Source: a phage. Taken from it: a stretch of DNA of 41,801 nucleotides. This document shows, piece after piece, positions 1 through 29,140 of the stretch (positions within the stretch are counted from its first letter, which is position 1; every line of letters starts with the position of its first letter). A program made the translations under genes and the position numbers. The stretch lies in sequence record PZ179881.1; one strand, 5' to 3'. The notes under the pieces were generated by a model. That model searched no databases and had not been told where the DNA came from. It worked only from the letters and a program-made list of their open reading frames with translations.

Positions 1-1926
1 ATGACTATTCCATATAACGTTTTGATGGAAACTGAGGAGGAAATGGCAGCACGTCTGGAGGAGGAGGGTAACGCCCTCCCCTACCTCTCGGACGAAGACT
101 TTGCCAATATGAGTGAGCTGGAGCAGGAACGCCGTGTGCGCCTGGAACAGCTCGCCGCTCTACAGATTCACTACAAAGACTTCAAGCGTTTCCTCACCGA
201 CGTTATGGTGGAGTTAGGCTTCTCAGTATCAAAGATTCAGGCCGACATTGCTGACTTCATGGTCAACGGCGGCAAGTACATCATGATTGAGGCACAGCGT
301 TCGCAGGCTAAGACGACCATCGCAGCCGCGTTCTGCGTGTGGCAGCTCATTCATGACCCGAAACACCGTGTGCTGATTATCTCAGCAGGCGGCTCGCAGG
401 CAACTGATATCTCCACCCTGGTCATTCGTATCATCATGAATATGGATGTGCTGGAGTGTATGCGCCCGGATAAAGCGAAGGGCGACCGTGTATCGGTAGA
501 GAAGTTCGACCTGCACTACTCTCTGCGCAAGCTGGATAAATCGGCTTCCGTAAGCTGCTGCGGTATCACCGCTAACTTGCAGGGCCGCCGTGCCGATACC
601 CTGCTGGCGGACGATATCGAGTCCCAGAAGAACTCCCTGACTGCCCTGATGCGTGAACAGCTCCTGGCTAAAACCCTCGACTTCACCTCCATCAACCAGT
701 CCGGTCGAATCATCTACCTGGGTACTCCGCAGTCCTCTGACTCAATCTACAACACCCTGCCGGGCCGTGGCTACAACGTCCGCATCTGGCCGGGGCGATT
801 CCCTACCAAAGAACAGCTCCCGTACTACGGTGAGCACCTGGCTCCGCTGCTGGCGTCCATTATGGAGCGCTACCCGGAAGTGCAGGGCGGTGGTGGTATC
901 AACGGCGACCAGGGAATCCCTATCGAGCCTTCTTTCCTGGGTGAGGAAATCCTCCAGGCTAAGGAGAAAGACCAGGGGCCAGCTTGGTTCCAACTCCAGC
1001 ACATGCTGAACACTAAACTGATGGACGCCGAACGGTATCCATTGAAGACTGACAACTGCCTCACTATGCCGATTCGCGTAGGAGACGAACTACCACTGGA
1101 GATTAAACGTGGCTACGACTACCGCGAAGTGCAAGTCGAAGGCAAGACCTACCGATTCGCTAAGCCTCACACATATTCCGCAGAACTGGCTAAGCCTACA
1201 GGCATCTGCTTCTACATCGACCCCGCAGGTGGGGGTAAAGGTAAAGGCACTCATGGGGGTGACGAAACTGGCTGGGCGTGTACTGCCTTCCTAAACGGTA
1301 ACATCTTCGTGCTGGGCTACGGCGGCATCAAAGGCGGCTATGGCCTGAACGGTTCCGGTGAAACGGATGGCTCTATGGTCAAGCTGGCCGAGCTGGTTAA
1401 ACGCTTCAAGCCCAACGTGGTTAAGATTGAGCAGAACTTCGGCTACGGTGCATTCCGTGCTGTCTTCCTGCCAATCCTGCGCGAGGTCTACCCGGATTGC
1501 TCCGTGGAAGACGACTTCGTTACCGGGCAGAAGGAAGTCCGTATCATCGACATTCTTGAGCCTATCATTGCTCGTGGTTCCCTCATCTTCGCAGAGGACG
1601 CCCTTCTGGGCGAGCGGCAGTCACTCCAGATTCACCCGGACGTGAACCGCATCACCTACTGCATGATGCAGCAGATGAACCACATCACCCGTGACCGTGA
1701 CTCCCTGATTCACGACGACCGACTGGATGCCCTGGCTGGCGCTTGCTACCATTGGGAACAGCAGCTCATCGTTGACCAGCACGAGATTCGGAAACGGATG
1801 CAGGAGGCCGAGGAGAAGAAGTTCTGGGCTGACCCGCTACAGCACAATCGCATTAAGCAGCAGGGCCAAGTGTTCAATCGTGGCACTGGCATGAACATGC
1901 TCGCACACCGTCGCGGTCGCCGTTAG
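1..1926 (+). CDS. terL: Terminase large subunit (T7 gp19-like packaging ATPase/nuclease)
   Basis: 641-aa ORF; its ATG at 1-3 overlaps the stop of the upstream small-terminase ORF across the window boundary (TA + A); size, position and remembered similarity to T7-group large terminases. Confidence 0.85.
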   Translation: MTIPYNVLMETEEEMAARLEEEGNALPYLSDEDFANMSELEQERRVRLEQLAALQIHYKDFKRFLTDVMVELGFSVSKIQADIADFMVNGGKYIMIEAQRSQAKTTIAAAFCVWQLIHDPKHRVLIISAGGSQATDISTLVIRIIMNMDVLECMRPDKAKGDRVSVEKFDLHYSLRKLDKSASVSCCGITANLQGRRADTLLADDIESQKNSLTALMREQLLAKTLDFTSINQSGRIIYLGTPQSSDSIYNTLPGRGYNVRIWPGRFPTKEQLPYYGEHLAPLLASIMERYPEVQGGGGINGDQGIPIEPSFLGEEILQAKEKDQGPAWFQLQHMLNTKLMDAERYPLKTDNCLTMPIRVGDELPLEIKRGYDYREVQVEGKTYRFAKPHTYSAELAKPTGICFYIDPAGGGKGKGTHGGDETGWACTAFLNGNIFVLGYGGIKGGYGLNGSGETDGSMVKLAELVKRFKPNVVKIEQNFGYGAFRAVFLPILREVYPDCSVEDDFVTGQKEVRIIDILEPIIARGSLIFAEDALLGERQSLQIHPDVNRITYCMMQQMNHITRDRDSLIHDDRLDALAGACYHWEQQLIVDQHEIRKRMQEAEEKKFWADPLQHNRIKQQGQVFNRGTGMNMLAHRRGRR

Positions 1927-1972: not shown

Positions 1973-2878
1973 ATGTTCGTACATGAAGCCCCATTCCTCG
2001 GCGCAGTATCCGGTGCAGGTCAGCTCCGTCGTGACGCAGTTCGTCTGCAATGCTATGCGGAAGTCAACACTGGCGCTCAGCCGGACGTGCTGGCGTTCTG
2101 GGAATCTCAGAAAGCCCTGGCTGATGTTGACCACGGCCTGCCGTATGATGGCACCTATGTTCCCGGCGTAATCGACCTGCGCCCGGCTTGTTACAAGGTG
2201 CTGTCCCATTACCGTATGTTCAACCCGGAAGGTATCCAGGACTACAAAGACTTCTGCGACTTCTTCATTGAAGCCAACGGAGGCGTTACTGTACCTCTGG
2301 GTTTTAGTAAGAACCTGTCAGGCTCGAACGCATCGGATGCAGAAGGCACCTATGTCCCGGCAGGTTCTACCTACACTAACAGCGTCGAAGTAACAGGCGG
2401 CAAAGCTCCATATACCTACCAGTGGTTCAAGCGTTCTGGTGGTGTAGACCAGCCTGTAGGAACCGATGCACCGGAGTACAGCATCCCTAACTACGCAGCA
2501 GGTAACAACGGTGATTACTTCGTCCGGGTTACTGATGCCAAAGGTACAGTTATTGAGTCTACCCGTGACCGTACCCGTGTTGCAGTGAGCCTGACTACCA
2601 ACCTGCCAACCACGGCTACCTGGACTGAGGGTACTGCGGCAACCCTGCGGGTTTGGGCGGCTAATGGCTTCCATCCATACGCTTACCAGTGGTTCAAAGA
2701 CGGTGTAGCGACGGGCAACACTGGTGCTTCCCTGAACAAATCTTCACCTACTGCTGCTGATGCAGGCGTGTATCATTGTCTCGTTACCAGTGCAAACACC
2801 CGTGCACCTCGGACGGTTGAGTCCGTTAAGTGCACTGTGACTGTCAATCCGGCACCGCCAGTTGAACCAGTGGAATAA
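1973..2878 (+). CDS. Ig-like domain protein (two tandem immunoglobulin-like domains); possible virion decoration/adhesion protein
   Basis: 301-aa ORF with GGAG 8 nt upstream of ATG; two repeats of the Ig I-set-like pattern (YTYQWFKRSGG...GDYFVRVTDAKG and YAYQWFKDGVATGN...DAGVYHCLVTSAN); N-terminal ~110 aa unrecognised. Confidence 0.6.
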   Translation: MFVHEAPFLGAVSGAGQLRRDAVRLQCYAEVNTGAQPDVLAFWESQKALADVDHGLPYDGTYVPGVIDLRPACYKVLSHYRMFNPEGIQDYKDFCDFFIEANGGVTVPLGFSKNLSGSNASDAEGTYVPAGSTYTNSVEVTGGKAPYTYQWFKRSGGVDQPVGTDAPEYSIPNYAAGNNGDYFVRVTDAKGTVIESTRDRTRVAVSLTTNLPTTATWTEGTAATLRVWAANGFHPYAYQWFKDGVATGNTGASLNKSSPTAADAGVYHCLVTSANTRAPRTVESVKCTVTVNPAPPVEPVE

Positions 2879-2886
2879 CAAGGAGG

Positions 2887-2904
2887 GCCGGGTGAAAGCC
2901 CGGC
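2887..2904 (+). promoter_or_regulatory. Hairpin between SD and start codon of the endolysin gene
   Basis: GCCGGG-TGAAAG-CCCGGC (6-bp GC stem) sits between AGGAGG (2881-2886) and ATG 2912; folding would bring the SD to about 7 nt from the start. Confidence 0.4.
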
Positions 2905-2911
2905 ATTTACT

Positions 2912-3484
2912 ATGAGCATCAAACAGAAGGTGGCGCTTGGTTCTATCGCCAGCGTCCTATCAATCATCGCTACTGTATACCCGAATGAGCTGCACACCTC
3001 TGACCGGGGACTACAGCACATAGCCCAATGGGAACAGTATGCTACCCGGACTTACCTGGACAGCGTTGGAGTACCGACCATTGGCCTGGGTGCTACAATC
3101 TGGCTCGACGGGAAGCGCCCTAAAGCGGGCCAGGAGGCCTCGGACTTCCAGGCAGCCCAACTGTTCATCCGTGACATTAAAGTGGCTGAGAAGTGCGTTC
3201 TGGAGCGCCTGGATGGTGCTGCGATGCCTCAGTCGGTATTCGATGCGTCAGTATCCCTGATTCACAATACCGGGTGCGCTGGTGCAACCTACAACCCTAA
3301 GCGTAAGGCTAAGACCAACCTCCGATTACAGGCTGAGGCCCATAACTGGTCACAGGTCTGCTACCGCATGGGTGACTTCATCTACGCTGGTGGCCGGGTA
3401 TCCAAAGGTCTGGTTAACCGCCGCACCGCTGACCAAAGGCTATGCCTGGAGGACTTACCGAATGTTTCCCTCAACCGCCGTTAA
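2912..3484 (+). CDS. SAR-endolysin (T4-lysozyme-type muramidase with N-terminal signal-anchor-release domain)
   Basis: 190 aa; weakly hydrophobic Gly/Ala/Ser-rich N-terminus (VALGSIASVLSIIATVY) followed by E-x8-D-x5-T catalytic spacing (WEQYATRTYLDSVGVPT), as in phiKMV/P21-type SAR lysozymes. Confidence 0.8.
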   Translation: MSIKQKVALGSIASVLSIIATVYPNELHTSDRGLQHIAQWEQYATRTYLDSVGVPTIGLGATIWLDGKRPKAGQEASDFQAAQLFIRDIKVAEKCVLERLDGAAMPQSVFDASVSLIHNTGCAGATYNPKRKAKTNLRLQAEAHNWSQVCYRMGDFIYAGGRVSKGLVNRRTADQRLCLEDLPNVSLNRR

Positions 3485-3833
3485 GAAGGTAGCAGCAGTG
3501 GCCCTGGTTGCCGCTGTGCTGGCCTCTCTGCTGTTCCTGGTACACTTCTATAAGGATAAGGCTGATACGGCCACAGAGCGGCTCCAGGGCGTTACTACGG
3601 AGCTTACTGAGACTCGTGATGCCTATGACCGATACGTTAACGAGCAGAGCCTCATCCGGGATATCCTGGCTGCTGGTGCTGCGGCTAAGCAGGCCTCAAA
3701 GGAGAAGACTGATGATGCCATTACGAAACACAAGGCTTCCGGTACTCGTGTCACTGTTAGCGATGCTGACGCTGACCTCCTGTACCAGAGAAGTCGTGAA
3801 GTACGAGAGGGTGCCGCTGGTTCTATCCAGTGA
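3462..3833 (+). CDS. i-spanin (Rz-like)
   Basis: ATG at 3462 (in frame with track ORF 3282-3833), GGAGG ~10 nt upstream; N-terminal TM segment (VAAVALVAAVLASLLFLV) then charged helical periplasmic domain; start overlaps endolysin 3' end. Confidence 0.65.
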   Translation: MFPSTAVKKVAAVALVAAVLASLLFLVHFYKDKADTATERLQGVTTELTETRDAYDRYVNEQSLIRDILAAGAAAKQASKEKTDDAITKHKASGTRVTVSDADADLLYQRSREVREGAAGSIQ

Positions 3834-3999
3834 GGTTACTGACCCGGTTAAGCCTCCGCTGTTCCAGAAGGATACCGACCTGGTTGAGTACGCCTTGCAG
3901 CTCCTGGGTGATATTGAGCAGATGAACCAAGACCGCGCTACTGTGCGGAAAGCTGTGGATACCCACAACGGTGCCTCTGTGACTCACCCTGTGAAGTAA
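3712..3999 (+). CDS. o-spanin (Rz1-like outer-membrane lipoprotein)
   Basis: Internal ATG of track ORF 3508-3999 with GGAG 8 nt upstream; signal peptide ending in lipobox-like LTSC; short Pro-rich mature region; out of frame and overlapping the i-spanin gene. Confidence 0.6.
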   Translation: MMPLRNTRLPVLVSLLAMLTLTSCTREVVKYERVPLVLSSEVTDPVKPPLFQKDTDLVEYALQLLGDIEQMNQDRATVRKAVDTHNGASVTHPVK

Positions 4000-4043
4000 C
4001 CCTGTGCTGGGCCGTCGGTGAGTGTATACCTGCGGCCCAAATA

Positions 4044-4052
4044 TGGTATAAT
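4044..4052 (+). promoter_or_regulatory. Extended -10 element TGgTATAAT (possible host promoter)
   Basis: Perfect TATAAT with upstream TG; no convincing -35; located just after the lysis cassette at the start of the non-coding terminal region. Confidence 0.25.
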
Positions 4053-4149
4053 TATGCGAGACGGTAGCGACCCGGCGCGGAACCCGTACTTCCCCCATAG
4101 GGCACCCGGCGGAACCATCGGAGTGACCATCTGGCCATCTGGACGGCTA

Positions 4150-4190
4150 AACGGGGAGCCTGCCGGATAACCGGGGAGCGAACCGGGGAG
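4150..4190 (+). repeat. Three direct copies of AACsGGGGAG
   Basis: AACGGGGAG (4150-4158), AACCGGGGAG (4169-4178), AACCGGGGAG (4181-4190); flanked by further CCGGGT / GGGTTA-rich repeats to about 4460. Confidence 0.5.
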
Positions 4191-4503
4191 AACCTCGCTT
4201 TAACCTGTGGGTTAGCCGGGTTGCCCTGTGCTTTACTCTGTGCGGTATCCTGTGCGTTAACCGGGTTGTACTCACCACGTCCCGCAGGTTTATCAGAGTC
4301 GCCACGGGTTAGACTCAAGGGTTATCGGTTGGTGAGTTTAGCAGTTACATCACCGGGTAACGAGGGTATCGGGTTAACAGTGGCTATAGTAACAGGGTTA
4401 GCCGGGAGTGTCAACCGGGTTTATTCATTGGGTTACTCATTGGTTTAAATCCGGGTAGACAGGCGGCCTATCTGTATCTTCTGCCATTACCCAGAGAGTA
4501 AAT

Positions 4504-4527
4504 CTGAATTGGCACCCCTATAGTAAC
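4504..4527 (+). promoter_or_regulatory. Phage RNAP promoter (CTGAATTGGCACCCCTATAGTAAC) in terminal/leader region
   Basis: One of four near-identical + strand copies of yTGAwTTGGCACyCCTATAG; resembles the SP6/K11 class of single-subunit RNAP promoters (xxCACTATAG core); predicted +1 at the final G (4523). Confidence 0.65.
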
Positions 4528-4565
4528 AGAACGGTCGAATGCGGCTTGTGTATCTGTTACGGCGG

Positions 4566-4770
4566 TAACCCGGAGGGAAGGGAGGGAGGAGAGAGACACG
4601 GGAGAGAGTAACCCAGAGAGGAGACTACCCGGAGAGACTACCCAGAGCATAGCCCAGAGGTTAGCACCCAGAGAGTAACCCAGAGGAGAGCAACCCGGAT
4701 AAGCTAACCCGGTTAACAGACACGGAGAGCAAGCCAGAGAGTAACCCGGCATAGCATAACCCGGAGAGCT
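4566..4770 (+). repeat. Array of about 13 short purine-rich direct repeats (CCCrGAGAG-type units, period about 12-13 bp)
   Basis: Visible tandem units such as ACCCAGAGAG, CCCGGAGAG, CCCAGAGGAGAG, often followed by TAA or CTA; starts about 40 nt downstream of the phage promoter at 4504. Confidence 0.6.
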
Positions 4771-4805
4771 ACCGCCTATAGTAAACCCGGCTAACCCTGG
4801 TTAAC

Positions 4806-4817
4806 CTGCACTCGCAA
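4806..4817 (+). repeat. Recurring hairpin motif copy 1 (CTGCACTCGCAA)
   Basis: Core GCACTCGCA, potential TGC-ACTC-GCA stem-loop; intergenic, ~30 nt upstream of the sigma70-like promoter. Confidence 0.5.
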
Positions 4818-4848
4818 AGGGTATCTGTAAATAATTTCTAAAAGAGTG

Positions 4849-4878
4849 TTGACACGGGCTAATCAGTATTGCTATAGT
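4849..4878 (+). promoter_or_regulatory. Sigma70-type host promoter candidate (early)
   Basis: TTGACA (4849-4854), 18-bp spacer, TGcTATAGT extended -10 (4870-4878); AT-rich stretch upstream (4826-4846). Confidence 0.5.
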
Positions 4879-4988
4879 TCACATCGTCGAAGGGCAACAC
4901 GGAAACGGATAGCCCAGAGATACCCGGTCAAGCGGGTTAAGTAGACAGCCTGCTCAGTCATACGAACAACAGGCACTTGACAAGATGT

Positions 4989-5029
4989 GATGTAACGTAG
5001 TACCTTAGTAACCGATGTAACGCAGTACC
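4989..5029 (+). repeat. 16-bp direct repeat pair GATGTAACGyAGTACC
   Basis: Copies at 4989-5004 and 5014-5029 differ at one position; between a TTGACA box (4977-4982) and the first early ORF; candidate protein-binding site. Confidence 0.45.
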
Positions 5030-5088
5030 GCTCTTTAACAATCCGGGTAATCTATCAAGTGATGCCGTCTAACAATGAGGGTAACACG

Positions 5089-5400
5089 ATGGAATTAAAG
5101 AAACAGTTGACACGCTATAAACGCAGTGCTAACGTAGAAAAGCTCCACCAGACGCTAAGCGCTGAGGCGATGCAGAAGGATGGGCAAGCGGCACGACGCC
5201 GCAAGAAACAGCTAAGCGAGCGGCTTTACATTCCGCAAGTTATAAGCTCTAATGACTTCTCCGATAAGGGGAACATGCGCAAGACGGCAGCTAGGAGCAA
5301 TCAGGGCAACGTCCGCGCCATCGGCAATAAGACCGATGTTAAGATTAACAGCTATTGGTCAAGTAAACGCGGCGATAACATGCCGAAAGATAAAGGTTGA
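5089..5400 (+). CDS. Hypothetical early protein (very basic, low complexity)
   Basis: ATG at 5089 with GAGGG 7 nt upstream (track ORF 5059 begins at an upstream GTG); first ORF after the terminal promoter region; coding status less certain because composition looks atypical. Confidence 0.45.
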   Translation: MELKKQLTRYKRSANVEKLHQTLSAEAMQKDGQAARRRKKQLSERLYIPQVISSNDFSDKGNMRKTAARSNQGNVRAIGNKTDVKINSYWSSKRGDNMPKDKG

Positions 5401-5453
5401 CAGCTACGGCGTCACCTGATAGATTACCCGGACAGTTAGCCAGTGACCGCAAC

Positions 5454-5465
5454 CCGCACTCGCAA
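5454..5465 (+). repeat. Recurring hairpin motif copy 2 (CCGCACTCGCAA)
   Basis: Core GCACTCGCA flanked by AACCC ... GGGTT, which can extend the stem; in the ORF-free gap. Confidence 0.5.
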
Positions 5466-5936
5466 GGGTTCAAACGGTTGAGTCACTGAGTTAACAAATC
5501 GCTTGACACTAAGCGATAACATGATGTAAAGTGATTACCGAGTTGACACGATGTTGGTGTCCTCCACGGCAGGGCGAGTAAACAGCCAGCCGATGCGCAG
5601 TCCTCCGGCGCGATGAGTCCTACGGGACGGTAGATGGGGAGGCCGAGCTAGGATTTAGGTCACATAAAATAATCCGAAGGGTGTGTGGCGAGCATTACCG
5701 TCTTATAGTCGAAAGGCTCACGGTAGGAATCGCGGCAAAGGTTCTCTTATCCAGTCAGTACAGGGATAACGTCCGATGCCACCAACGAGATAACATCCAG
5801 AGACGCTGGACGGTTGGAACTGAGTACGCTTAACGGTGGAAATGGGAAGGCTTGCGTAGTGATGTTATCTGGTTGGTTAATGTAAGCGTCATTGATGTGA
5901 TGGCGCTGACTTTAACTAACAACTGAGGATATAATC

Positions 5937-24984: not shown

Positions 24985-26505
24985 ATGCGCACTAACGAAA
25001 CGGCTCAAAGCCGCTGGCAGAAACTGGACGCTAAGCGCCAGGGTATGCTGACGCGGTGTGAGCGGTACGCCGCTCTTACCTTACCCAGCGTGTGTCCCGA
25101 AGACAGTTACGACGAGGGTACTGACGAGTTAAGTCAGTCCCTCAACTCTATCGGCGCACAGGCGGTCAACAGCTTGACGAACAAGATGATGCTGGCAATG
25201 TTCGCACCATCCCGACCGTTCATGAAGTTTGACCTCCCGGTGGGTGAGAAGAATAAAATCCTCAAGGCGCTGGGCCTGGACGACGCGGCGTTCCGTGAGG
25301 AAATGGCAGTAGCCGAGAAGGAGGCAATTCGCTTCCTGGACAGCACGGGCAGTCGGCCTAAGCTGTATGACCTGTTCAACCACTTAATCATCACGGGTAA
25401 CGCTCTCAAGCTCAACGAGAACGACACCATGCGAATCATCGGCATCAAGGACTTCGTTAGCCGCCGAAACGTGCAGGGTCGTGTGATTGAGATTATCTTC
25501 CGCGAATGCGTGGACGTGGACGAGCTGCCGGAAGACCTCCAGCAATTCGCCTACACGTTGAAGCACACGGACGATAAGCAGGTGCATTACTACCGCTGGT
25601 GGGTGTGGGACGGCAAGAAGTACATTGAGCGTCAGTATCTGGACGATACGCACATCACCCTGCCGAAGTACAACGGGCAGTACAAGCCGGAGGACATGCC
25701 TGCACAGCACCATGTGTGGCGCATCGCTGACAAGCGTAATTACGGCATTGGCCACGTTGAGGACTACATCGGTGACTTCGAAGGGCTTGACCAGCTCACT
25801 GAGGCTGAGGTCAACGGCGCTATCCTGGCGTCTGAGTTCCGCTGGCTGGCCAACCCCGGCGGCATGACCCGACCGGAAGACATTCAGCGCTCCCGCAACG
25901 GTGACGTTGTGCCTGGCCAGGATGGTGACCTGTCACTGATTAACGCCGGGCAGGTAGCTGGTGCATTGCAGGTTGTGTCGGCATCCGCTGACAAGTACAT
26001 CCGCCGCATCGGGCAGGGCTTCCTGCTAACCTCCGCAGTACAGCGCGACGCTGAGCGTGTCACCGCTGAGGAGATTCGACTGCTGGCGAATGAGCTGGAG
26101 ACTGGCCTGGGTGGTATCTACTCCCGCCTGGCGATTGACCTCCAGCTACCGATTGCGCACTGGCTGATGAAGAACGTCGATAACGGCATCTTCAAGGGCA
26201 GCGACTTCCAGCCTGTTATCGTGACTGGCCTGGATGCGCTATCCCGTAACGGCGACCTGGAGAACATGCAGTTGTTCCTGGGTGACGTGGCGCAAATCAC
26301 CTCAATGCCGCCAGAGGTACAGCAGTATCTCAAACTGGACACCATCTTCTCTGCACTTGCAGCAGGTCGCGGACTTCGTTCCTCCGACTTCATCAACAAA
26401 CAGAGTGAGGTTGACCAGCGAAACGCTGAGGCGCAAGCCCAGATGCAACAGCAACAACTCGAAGCAGCAGGTGTTGACGCTGCGCTCAAGAAACAAGCTA
26501 AGTAA
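24985..26505 (+). CDS. Portal (head-tail connector) protein
   Basis: 506 aa; GGGAGG upstream; first large gene of the structural module, followed by scaffold and capsid. Confidence 0.8.
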   Translation: MRTNETAQSRWQKLDAKRQGMLTRCERYAALTLPSVCPEDSYDEGTDELSQSLNSIGAQAVNSLTNKMMLAMFAPSRPFMKFDLPVGEKNKILKALGLDDAAFREEMAVAEKEAIRFLDSTGSRPKLYDLFNHLIITGNALKLNENDTMRIIGIKDFVSRRNVQGRVIEIIFRECVDVDELPEDLQQFAYTLKHTDDKQVHYYRWWVWDGKKYIERQYLDDTHITLPKYNGQYKPEDMPAQHHVWRIADKRNYGIGHVEDYIGDFEGLDQLTEAEVNGAILASEFRWLANPGGMTRPEDIQRSRNGDVVPGQDGDLSLINAGQVAGALQVVSASADKYIRRIGQGFLLTSAVQRDAERVTAEEIRLLANELETGLGGIYSRLAIDLQLPIAHWLMKNVDNGIFKGSDFQPVIVTGLDALSRNGDLENMQLFLGDVAQITSMPPEVQQYLKLDTIFSALAAGRGLRSSDFINKQSEVDQRNAEAQAQMQQQQLEAAGVDAALKKQAK

Positions 26506-27440: not shown

Positions 27441-28460
27441 ATGTCTATTTTTGACGGTCAGACCCCATCCTACGACGTAACCCGCCCGAACCAGCGCCAC
27501 GGCGCAGGCGACCCGCTGGCTGACGTAACCGAGCAGTTCACTGGTACTGTGGAAGGCACCATCAAGCGCCGCTCCATCATGGCTGGTTTCGTTCCGGTAC
27601 GTTCCGTTCGCGGTACTTCCACGATTTCTAACCGTGGTATCTCCAAAGCCAAGCTCCAGAAGATTGCGCCGGGTACTACCCCACCGCCGTCTACTGAGCC
27701 GCACACCTCCAAAATCTTCCTGAAAATCGACACGGTAATCATCGCTCGAAACGCTGAGCCGATGCTGGATGAGTTCCAGACCGACTTCGATTACCAGGGC
27801 GAAGTGGCGCGTGAGCAGGGCCAGGAAATCGCCAACATGTACGATGAAACCTTCTTCATCATGGCGGCTAAAGCAGCTCTGGCGACCGACTCCGTGTACG
27901 GCACCGCAGCTCAGATGCCTGGTCACTCCGGTGGTAACATCGTGACCCTGGCAGGCGCTAACGACTACAAAGACCCGGCTAAGCTGTACGCAGCTATCGC
28001 GTCTCTGGTCGAGAAGTTCCTGGAGAAGGACGTTCGCCCGAACGAAGAAGACATGATTCTGGTTCTGCCTCCGGCTGCGTTCACCGCGCTGATGCAGGCT
28101 GAGCACATCACTAACGGTGAGTACGTTACCTCCGCTGGTGAGACTCTGAACACCAAATACATGTTCGCTGCTTTCGGCGTTCCGGTAATCACCTCCAACA
28201 ACGCAGTATTCGGTAAGACCATTACCGACCACCTGCTGTCCAACGCCAACAACGAGAAAGCCTACGACGGTGACTTCAAAGATATCGTCGCTCAGATGTT
28301 CTCTCCGAAGGCGCTGCTGGCTGGTTCTACCATCCCGGTAACCTCCAAAATCTTCTTCGACGACCTCTCTAAACTGTGGTTCATCGACTCCTGGCTGGCA
28401 TTCGGCGTGACCATCAACCGTACTGAGTACGCTGGTGTTATCAAGCTGCCTGCTGCCTAA
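27441..28460 (+). CDS. Major capsid protein
   Basis: 339 aa; preceded by a phage promoter and 5' hairpin, followed by a strong terminator; size and position as T7 gp10A. Confidence 0.8.
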   Translation: MSIFDGQTPSYDVTRPNQRHGAGDPLADVTEQFTGTVEGTIKRRSIMAGFVPVRSVRGTSTISNRGISKAKLQKIAPGTTPPPSTEPHTSKIFLKIDTVIIARNAEPMLDEFQTDFDYQGEVAREQGQEIANMYDETFFIMAAKAALATDSVYGTAAQMPGHSGGNIVTLAGANDYKDPAKLYAAIASLVEKFLEKDVRPNEEDMILVLPPAAFTALMQAEHITNGEYVTSAGETLNTKYMFAAFGVPVITSNNAVFGKTITDHLLSNANNEKAYDGDFKDIVAQMFSPKALLAGSTIPVTSKIFFDDLSKLWFIDSWLAFGVTINRTEYAGVIKLPAA

Positions 28461-28534: not shown

Positions 28535-29140
28535 ATGTTTACTGAACTTGACGTGGTTAACGCCTGTCTCGCCACCCTGGGTGAGCTGCCGCTGGTCGAA
28601 CTGACCGACGAGCATCCTATGGTCGCAGCAGCGCGAGTCAACCTCACGGAAGCAATCGTATCAGAAATGCACCGCCAATGGTGGTTCAATACTGATTACG
28701 TTCATTTAGCAGCAACGGAAGAAGGGTACATTTACGCACCCGCAGATGCCGTAGCTGTGAAAGTTGCCAATTGCTCAAATCTTACCCTACGTGGACGCAG
28801 ACTGTACGACCGCTACAACAGCACGTATGTTCTGGGCTACGACGTGGACGCCGTGGTTATCCGCAACATCCCATTCGAAGACCTGCCCGGTATGGCGCAG
28901 ATTCTGGTGAAGGATGCGGCGGTGCTGCAATTCCAGATTAACTACGACGCCGACAGCACGAAGACGCAGCAGCTACAGTCCAAGTACGCCAACTCGTACC
29001 GACTGCTTAACGCTGAACACACCCGCCAGATTGCAGCTAACCAGCTTGAGAATCCGGGCGTGGCGGTGGCACGTATGAACGCTGGTGTTCGTCCTCGCCG
29101 CAATCGTCCGTATGGCGCTAACACAATTCGCACGAGGTAA
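28535..29140 (+). CDS. Tail tubular protein A
   Basis: 201 aa, AGGAGG upstream; position and size as T7 gp11. Confidence 0.7.
   Translation: MFTELDVVNACLATLGELPLVELTDEHPMVAAARVNLTEAIVSEMHRQWWFNTDYVHLAATEEGYIYAPADAVAVKVANCSNLTLRGRRLYDRYNSTYVLGYDVDAVVIRNIPFEDLPGMAQILVKDAAVLQFQINYDADSTKTQQLQSKYANSYRLLNAEHTRQIAANQLENPGVAVARMNAGVRPRRNRPYGANTIRTR

Follow-up and report, generated by a model that had tools for sequence, protein, structure and literature searches.

Between the large terminase gene (terL) and the lysis genes of a Cronobacter phage lies a reading frame whose 301-residue product ends in two immunoglobulin-like (Ig) domains. Its position raises the question of whether the protein belongs on the surface of the virion and, if so, which part of the chain would hold it there, or whether it serves DNA packaging or lysis instead. 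We considered the gene in the context of the whole stretch of 41,801 nucleotides to which it belongs (record PZ179881.1, here called the window), following up an earlier note that had read it as a stand-alone tandem Ig protein in an unusual slot, possibly a detachable capsid decoration or adhesion accessory.

Genomic context of the Ig gene

With its 41.8 kb, the window represents the whole genome of a Cronobacter podovirus of the GAP227 type (Autographiviridae, Melnykvirinae, Cronosvirus); the sequence is given in a circular permutation with terL at its beginning. Position 1 of the GAP227 genome corresponds to window position 4612, and megablast of window 1-25000 gave 96.7-97.4% identity to the Cronobacter phages GAP227, EspYZU05 and GY3. 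The late region runs from portal (24985-26505) and scaffold through the major capsid protein (MCP, 27441-28460), tail tubular proteins A (28535-29140) and B and the internal virion proteins to the tail spike, an order that is usual for T7/phiKMV-like phages, and in related records this block is followed by holin, terS, terL, the Ig gene, endolysin and spanins. No second Ig copy was found elsewhere in the window, the frame at 1973-2878 being the only Ig-bearing gene of the genome. The features of the locus are collected in Table 1.

The earlier note had placed a frame of 301 codons between terL and the lysis genes, and both the exact ORF and the Pfam matches of its neighbours confirm this. Frameshifting or read-through from terL is ruled out by the terL stop codon (TAG, 1924-1926), the different frame, a 46-nt spacer and the gene's own Shine-Dalgarno (SD) sequence. 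The frame might also be a chance or decaying one without function, and its exact sequence is indeed absent from a 15-billion-protein collection; against this stand 64 homologues at E <= 1e-5, many of them on phage contigs of 41-42 kb, together with a confident AlphaFold2 (AF2) model, a good SD, a conserved position and domain-wise purifying conservation. We give that explanation hardly any probability and regard it as effectively refuted: 1973-2878 is a real, well-folded and conserved gene.

Table 1. Features of the terL-endolysin region, in window coordinates
Feature	Position	Strand	Basis
terL	1..1926	+	Pfam Terminase-T7_RNaseH-like 6.5e-31; phrog_38/17672
Shine-Dalgarno GGAG, 8 nt 5' of start codon	1961..1964	+	read from sequence
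Whole CDS, 301 aa + stop	1973..2878	+	ORF list; ATG start; stop TAA 2876-2878
N-terminal four-helix domain, aa 1-108 (proposed virion anchor)	1973..2296	+	AF2
Ig-like domain 1 (Ig1), aa 109-204	2297..2584	+	AF2 beta-sandwich 110-203; Pfam Ig_3
Ig-like domain 2 (Ig2), aa 205-293, distal, most variable module	2585..2851	+	AF2 beta-sandwich 206-292
Short Pro/Glu-rich C-terminal tail, PAPPVEPVE	2852..2875	+	sequence; pLDDT lower, 62-81
GC-rich hairpin, 7 bp, GAAA loop, directly 3' of gene	2887..2904	+	terminator-like match
Lysozyme (endolysin)	2912..3484	+	Pfam Phage_lysozyme 1.8e-22

The 18-nt hairpin behind the gene folds as RNA with -14.9 kcal/mol (z = -1.9); it closes the structural and packaging gene block and lies between the SD and the ATG of the endolysin gene. 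This SD (AAGGAGG, 2880-2886) stands 25 nt from the ATG at 2912, a spacing that the folded hairpin shortens to about 7 nt. An equivalent stem-loop is annotated in GAP227 and is also present in phi80-18 and KYP. The SD-hairpin-AUG layout recurs with differing stem sequences in GAP227, phi80-18 and the Klebsiella phage KYP, and is absent from Vibrio G1 and Ahp1. The hairpin could be a terminator or attenuator that ends the late block, a structure-bridged ribosome-binding site, or both.

Overlapping Rz/Rz1-like spanin genes lie downstream of the lysozyme (Pfam, PHROGs). Analogy with GY3 ORF02 places the i-spanin (phrog_214) at 3462-3833, and the o-spanin lies at about 3796-3999 (Pfam LysC/Rz1-like; phrog_13582); they overlap by about 38 nt in different frames and are not embedded. 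The endolysin opens with a weakly hydrophobic segment rich in Gly, Ala and Ser, KVALGSIASVLSIIATVY, and a start of this kind is typical of signal-anchor-release (R21-type) endolysins. For its phi80-18 orthologue, HHpred gave a match to 'endolysin R21' (PMC7316996 Table S2). The holin gene lies upstream of terS, outside the lysis cassette. On the plus strand, window 4000-5900 holds no long ORF; given that the left end of the GAP227 genome falls at 4612, the terminal repeat and the early promoter region are to be expected here, and a strong sigma-70-like promoter match (TTGACA-18-TATAGT) is located at 4849-4878.

Domain architecture and fold

Structure prediction with AF2 on 36 homologues produced a confident model (mean pLDDT 94.1, pTM 0.76). 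The N-terminal domain (N-domain) consists of helices 15-31, 33-49, 70-83 and 85/87-101 (pLDDT 92-94), its best-conserved stretch being the loop HGLPYDGTYVPGVIDLR (aa 54-70). In agreement with the earlier note, which had described some 110 unrecognised residues at this end of the chain, the N-domain gave no Pfam or NCBIfam match. Its two helix-hairpin halves were compared to test for an internal duplication, which would link the domain to the dimeric alpha-claw decorations; hhalign returned an E of 0.015 at a probability of 2.9%, the reversed control giving an E of 0.49. No signal peptide or transmembrane segment was found in the 301-residue sequence.

The remainder of the chain forms two Greek-key beta-sandwiches, both modelled with pLDDT above 95. 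The Ig signature motifs quoted in the earlier note are present in both repeats, as GGKAPYTYQWFK and GDYFVRVTD in Ig1 (APYTYQWFK ... NNGDYFVRVTD) and as HPYAYQWFK ... DAGVYHCLVTSAN in Ig2, and the Ig-like beta-sandwich that it had predicted is borne out by AF2, Foldseek and Pfam alike. The sequence passes the Pfam gathering scores of Ig_3 (43.1 bits, cut-off 30) and Ig_2 (31.7 bits, cut-off 27), the best Ig_3 stretch being residues 212-272 within Ig2, and a Pfam SprB-repeat motif is found at residues 137-151 within Ig1. Against the PDB, Foldseek retrieved tandem Ig proteins, namely Dscam (1e-12), titin, JAM and RB49 Hoc (3shs, 4e-10). Ig1 and Ig2 resemble each other only weakly (the BLASTP alignment spans 23 residues around PYxYQWFK, E 5e-5), which makes them distinct modules and not the outcome of a recent tandem duplication. 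Tails or linkers rich in Pro and Glu, like the one that ends the window protein, occur in homologues and in phi80-18 g54.

A lineage-specific N-terminal domain in a fixed position

A tblastn search with residues 1-117 located the N-domain in 64 phage records, every match lying directly after terL and often abutting it, among phages of Cronobacter, Kosakonia, Pectobacterium, Yersinia, Serratia, Salmonella, Proteus, Klebsiella, Escherichia, Aeromonas and Vibrio. Just 35 clusters with this domain came out of an exhaustive HMMER scan over 1.84 billion representatives; it occupies residues 1 to about 110 in all 35 representatives, their total length ranging from 111 to 382 aa. Across Melnykvirinae and Youngvirus the gene order is fixed as tail fibre, holin, terS, terL, Ig gene and endolysin. 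The synteny at the end of the late block was seen in seven genomes of five genera (GAP227, GY3, EspYZU13, phi80-18, KYP, Vibrio G1 and Ahp1), and the placement between terL and endolysin is also found in the window. Position and form are thus canonical in the subfamily, so that two points of the earlier note fail: the slot is not unusual, and neither is an independent gene, since Hoc, T5 pb10 and Sf14 gp20 are all free-standing.

An alignment of 42 sequences identified F42, D59, G60, R70 and R81 as invariant throughout the family and F42, G55, P57, D59, G60, D68, R70, Y74, R81 and F94 as the most conserved residues, and the window protein carries the family pattern F42, G55-x-P57-x-D59-G60, D68-x-R70, Y74, R81 and F94. 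These residues are concentrated within or near the long loop that joins the two helix hairpins, a candidate binding surface. Residues 1-108 match phrog_10357 (E 2.7e-16) and phrog_38617 (E 5.9e-16). In the BFVD, Foldseek matched the N-domain only to members of its own family (fHe-Yen3-01, phiAS7 and 25AhydR2PP, TM 0.83-0.84), and the phmmer matches of the protein in the PDB are confined to its Ig part. The four-helix N-domain is a conserved, lineage-specific family core, unrelated to the anchors of Hoc and pb10 as far as detectable.

What follows the N-domain differs between members: nothing but a Pro/Glu-rich tail, one to three I-set-type Ig domains, Big_2, or an unrecognised beta-rich region of 100-250 aa. 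In many genera the helical domain stands alone, as in phi80-18 g54, a distant orthologue of 135 aa (tblastn E 3e-10) that is made up of the N-domain only. Two much longer proteins, P0076 (2371 aa) and P0088 (1316 aa), gave matches to the N-domain at several places; both are repetitive (Big_9/cadherin-like and mixed repeats), and their matches were therefore treated as spurious. A C-terminal peptide, (G)[KT]NG[VI]xx, is present in 18 of the 29 non-Cronosvirus members with an N-domain, whatever the intervening region, and in 0 of 47 Cronosvirus-like members, the window protein included. The set in which this peptide was followed comprised homologues P0067-P0095 and the loci L006 2501-2908, L008 3001-3972 and L009 2992-3414, and its codons are AAGAACGG in the three genomes checked.

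Variation and exchange of the Ig modules

The Ig domain of T5 pb10 (5lxk/8zvi) shares 38% identity over 93 aa with Ig2 (E 2e-13) and 34% with Ig1, and sequence matches to solved structures were obtained with Sf14 gp20 (9c2d_S, E 3e-12) and T5 pb10 (5lxk/8zvi, E about 1e-9). Among homologues that combine the N-domain with two Ig domains, mean pairwise identity is 58% for Ig2, 75% for Ig1 and 69% for the N-domain. One homologue (P0030) has 47% identity in the N-domain and 81% and 84% in the Ig domains, and two others (P0005 and P0007) have 89% in the N-domain and 50-52% in Ig2. Nucleotide identity to GAP227 falls to 57-63% in Ig2, compared with 97-99% for the backbone. Recombination has made window 2100-3600 a mosaic centred on Ig2, with the distal Ig domain as its hot spot.

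Along the sequence, the patch that diverges from GAP227 starts within the Ig gene and takes in the 5' half of the endolysin gene (window 2100-3600), with 57-68% identity at 2550-3150 and a return to 100% at about 3600. In the comparison with EspYZU13 the identity trough covers only 2400-2850, that is, the end of Ig1 and Ig2.

The same pair of Ig domains, at about 50% identity, is found on an unrelated short N-domain of about 70 aa in a protein of 253 aa (P0047; relatives P0048-P0053). The presence of the pair on a different N-domain in an unrelated phage suggests horizontal transfer of the Ig cassette between lineages. The locus (L004 6001-6762; ENA ERZ28018331 contig k119_81777, 42.8 kb) belongs to a phage of unrelated type with divergent gene orientation, where the gene again adjoins lysis genes (DUF2514 spanin, holin). 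The independent recombination of the modules fits an exposed, exchangeable display part mounted on a lineage-specific socket.

Orthologues and their annotation

The whole protein falls into phrog_2973 (E 7e-100, with residues 1-299 aligned to positions 1-290 of the 310-position profile), whose family name, "Hoc-like head decoration", is an annotation label. Its orthologues include GAP227_44, GY3 ORF04, Dev-CD-23823 gp45 (phrog_2973) and Arno160 ORF45. Orthologues share the slot and the N-domain with the window protein, at 88-97% identity within Cronosvirus and 58-59% in Pectobacterium phages; those of GAP227 and Dev-CD-23823 differ in the Ig2 cassette (blastn matches the first 625-633 nt only), and that of Arno160 has one Ig domain where the window protein has two. 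GY3 ORF04 (97% nucleotide identity) is annotated as a Hoc-like head decoration, and RefSeq gives the same name to GAP227_44 and Dev-CD-23823 gp45. The authors of the Arno160 study describe ORF45 as an "outer capsid protein", note its Ig-like domain at the C-terminus and the conservation of orthologues in the group, and state that they could not determine its role (PMC7246868). With orthologues labelled in this way and the Arno160 proposal at hand, the idea put forward in the earlier note is a standing hypothesis for the gene family and not a new one, the RefSeq and PHROGs label and the "outer capsid protein" (PMC7246868) having preceded it. The gene itself adds a new allele to a family that had already been catalogued.

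Other names given to orthologues are "major tail subunit" (EspYZU05), "tail assembly protein" (KYP), "putative outer capsid protein", "recombinase" and "hypothetical". The variable C-terminal part leads PHROGs to split one family into phrog_10357 ("recombinase"), phrog_38617 (unknown) and phrog_2973, and in NC_019911, NC_047866, NC_047941, NC_070758 and other RefSeq records orthologues with the N-domain only, or with the N-domain and an unknown region, are named 'recombinase' through phrog_10357. No recombinase domain was recognisable by Pfam, NCBIfam or fold comparison, and the name is probably a propagated mis-annotation. The labels "major tail subunit" and "tail assembly protein" are unsupported, and "Hoc-like" derives from the Ig domains only. 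Papers on Ahp1, Kc318, PP2, Bolek/Lolek/Tola, Ahy-Yong1 and Csp-D17 yielded no proteomic or structural data on the gene.

Comparison with known decoration proteins

T5 pb10 is a proven capsid decoration, and in its family a conserved helical N-terminal domain (NTD) binds the capsid, the divergent C-terminal part consists of one or two extra domains, and distant relatives have the NTD only (PMC5292684). Like the window protein, pb10 (PDB 5LXK/5LXL, 8ZVI) joins a helical NTD through a short Pro-containing junction to an outward I-set-type Ig domain. The two anchors are nevertheless different: hhalign detects no relation between the pb10 NTD and the N-domain family profile (probability 0.2%), the pb10 motif F-G-x2-L-P-x4-5-F-F is absent from the window protein, and four long helices in about 105 aa face five short ones in about 65 aa. 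The window protein also has two Ig domains where pb10 has one, and its virus is a T7-like podovirus (MCP 339 aa), that of pb10 a T5-like siphovirus.

Sf14 gp20 (PDB 9C2D chain S), a Hoc-like decoration that binds the capsid through its N-terminal domain and has three Ig domains (PMC11821841), likewise places a non-Ig domain ahead of its Ig-like domains, and the number of the latter varies in both cases, from two to three among gp20 relatives and from one to three in the family of the window protein. The similarity is restricted to the Ig repeats, the alignment covering residues 207-297 of the window protein, and Sf14 is a T=9 myovirus with a beta-tulip cement protein, unlike the window phage. 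In all these Ig decorations except T4 Hoc the capsid-binding domain is N-terminal (PMC11821841).

T4/RB49 Hoc resembles the window protein as a tandem string of Ig-like domains and as a free-standing, presumably non-essential protein. Typical of the T4 Hoc family are binding at capsid hexamer centres and dispensability. In Hoc, three Ig domains are followed by a C-terminal capsid-binding domain (PDB 3SHS; PMC10385173), whereas the non-Ig domain of the window protein is N-terminal and helical and the chain ends 8 residues after Ig2, so that the polarity is reversed; as there is no C-terminal domain, an anchor of the Hoc type is not possible. Small helical capsid decorations are also found in the Autographiviridae PhiM1 and HRP29 (alpha-claw and alpha-paw, the latter with an extra outward C-terminal extension; PMC11440229); there, a dimer of helix-turn-helix units makes up a four-helix bundle that is superficially like the two helix hairpins of the window protein. 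In layout the window protein resembles pb10 or Sf14 gp20, but it is a member of neither family.

Location of the protein and its probable role

On balance, we consider it probable that the gene encodes a virion-surface decoration with an N-terminal anchor, most likely seated on the capsid, in a pb10-style arrangement of anchor plus display; as a decoration it is probably dispensable. This reading draws on the homology of the Ig modules to the proven capsid decorations T5 pb10 and Sf14 gp20, on an evolutionary pattern that matches that of pb10 (a conserved helical N-domain with variable or absent C-terminal Ig domains), on the independent recombination of the modules, on the detection of phi80-18 g54 in particles and on the absence of an Ig domain from every other gene of the window. 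The decoration or adhesion accessory of the earlier note is accordingly upheld as the best reading of the Ig homology, the pb10-like layout and the particle-associated g54, the capsid location within it being one that we infer. The published descriptions of relatives that were consulted contain no report of capsid fibres.

The Yersinia phi80-18 protein g54 is listed as phage-particle-associated by LC-MS/MS (PMC7316996 Table S2), in a supplement that gives no peptide or coverage numbers for it. The same particle proteome held helicase, ligase, DNA polymerase, exonuclease and both terminase subunits (PMC7316996), and with replication enzymes in the preparation the presence of g54 counts as weak evidence for a structural role. 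One could accordingly take the N-domain for a non-structural protein, either a DNA-packaging accessory or a lysis regulator, with g54 carried over into the particles along with enzymes that are clearly non-structural and with the Ig domains acquired secondarily. The constant place of the gene between terL and the endolysin gene, where it abuts or overlaps terL in several genera, would suit this, as would the occurrence of the helical domain in many genera without a display module and the PHROGs label 'recombinase' on the form reduced to the N-domain (phrog_10357). Repeated independent gain of extracellular-type domains (I-set Ig, Big_2, other beta domains) nonetheless fits a cytoplasmic role poorly, and no signal peptide or transmembrane segment suggests lysis; the 'recombinase' label finds no support in Pfam or NCBIfam, and decoration proteins reduced to the NTD exist in the pb10 family (PMC5292684). 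We hold a non-structural role to be quite improbable.

A position on the virion but off the capsid shell has also to be weighed. The N-domain would then dock at the portal, adaptor or tail, in the manner of a collar or whisker, and the Ig domains would aid host contact near the tail spikes. The Ig family does occur on tail tube proteins, as at the C-terminus of Sf11 gp24 (9occ_A, E 2e-6), and Ig-related PHROGs carry tail, major tail or tail tubular labels (phrog_3995, phrog_158, phrog_853, phrog_9239), so that Ig homology alone does not indicate the capsid; annotators have chosen tail names for the EspYZU05 and KYP orthologues, and the gene comes after those for tail fibre, holin and terminase and not after that for the capsid. 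These tail names, however, derive from Ig similarity only, and in all the tail examples the Ig domain is fused to the tail protein itself, with no separate anchor protein. The free-standing anchor-plus-Ig proteins of known location, namely pb10, Sf14 gp20 and Hoc, are capsid decorations (PMC5292684, PMC11821841), and no tail-binding domain is recognisable in residues 1-108. We judge the portal or tail an unlikely seat.

On a capsid decoration of the preferred kind, the gene would be transcribed together with the late structural and packaging genes, and the four-helix N-domain (aa 1-108) would act as the anchor, docking on the assembled particle with the capsid shell as the most plausible site. 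From there the two Ig domains (aa 109-293) would project roughly 8 nm outward and end in the Pro/Glu tail. Thus exposed, they may bind carbohydrate, in the form of weak, multivalent contacts with glycans on host envelopes, capsule or environmental surfaces, and such binding would raise encounter rates. An increase in encounter rate through surface binding is what has been proposed for Hoc-type proteins.

More tentatively, the N-domain may represent a new virion-docking fold of Melnykvirinae and Youngvirus, which would bind through the G-x-P-x-DG...D-x-R loop and serve as a socket for swapped display modules; we see this as a possibility to entertain rather than to expect. The C-terminal (G)KNG(V/I) peptide of other genera could be a second contact.

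Implications

The yield for basic biology is small and consists mainly of annotation hygiene. If the reading of the N-domain is true, the four-helix socket would be a third, independent capsid anchor for Ig fibres, beside the C-terminal domain of Hoc and the NTD of pb10, and a potential display platform for T7-like phages. If its grip on the capsid equalled that of the pb10 NTD, the N-domain could become a self-anchoring tag for display on phages of the GAP227 type and on other Melnykvirinae used in the biocontrol of Cronobacter, Yersinia, Aeromonas and Klebsiella. For the phages themselves, the hypervariable distal Ig domain could affect adsorption or environmental retention.
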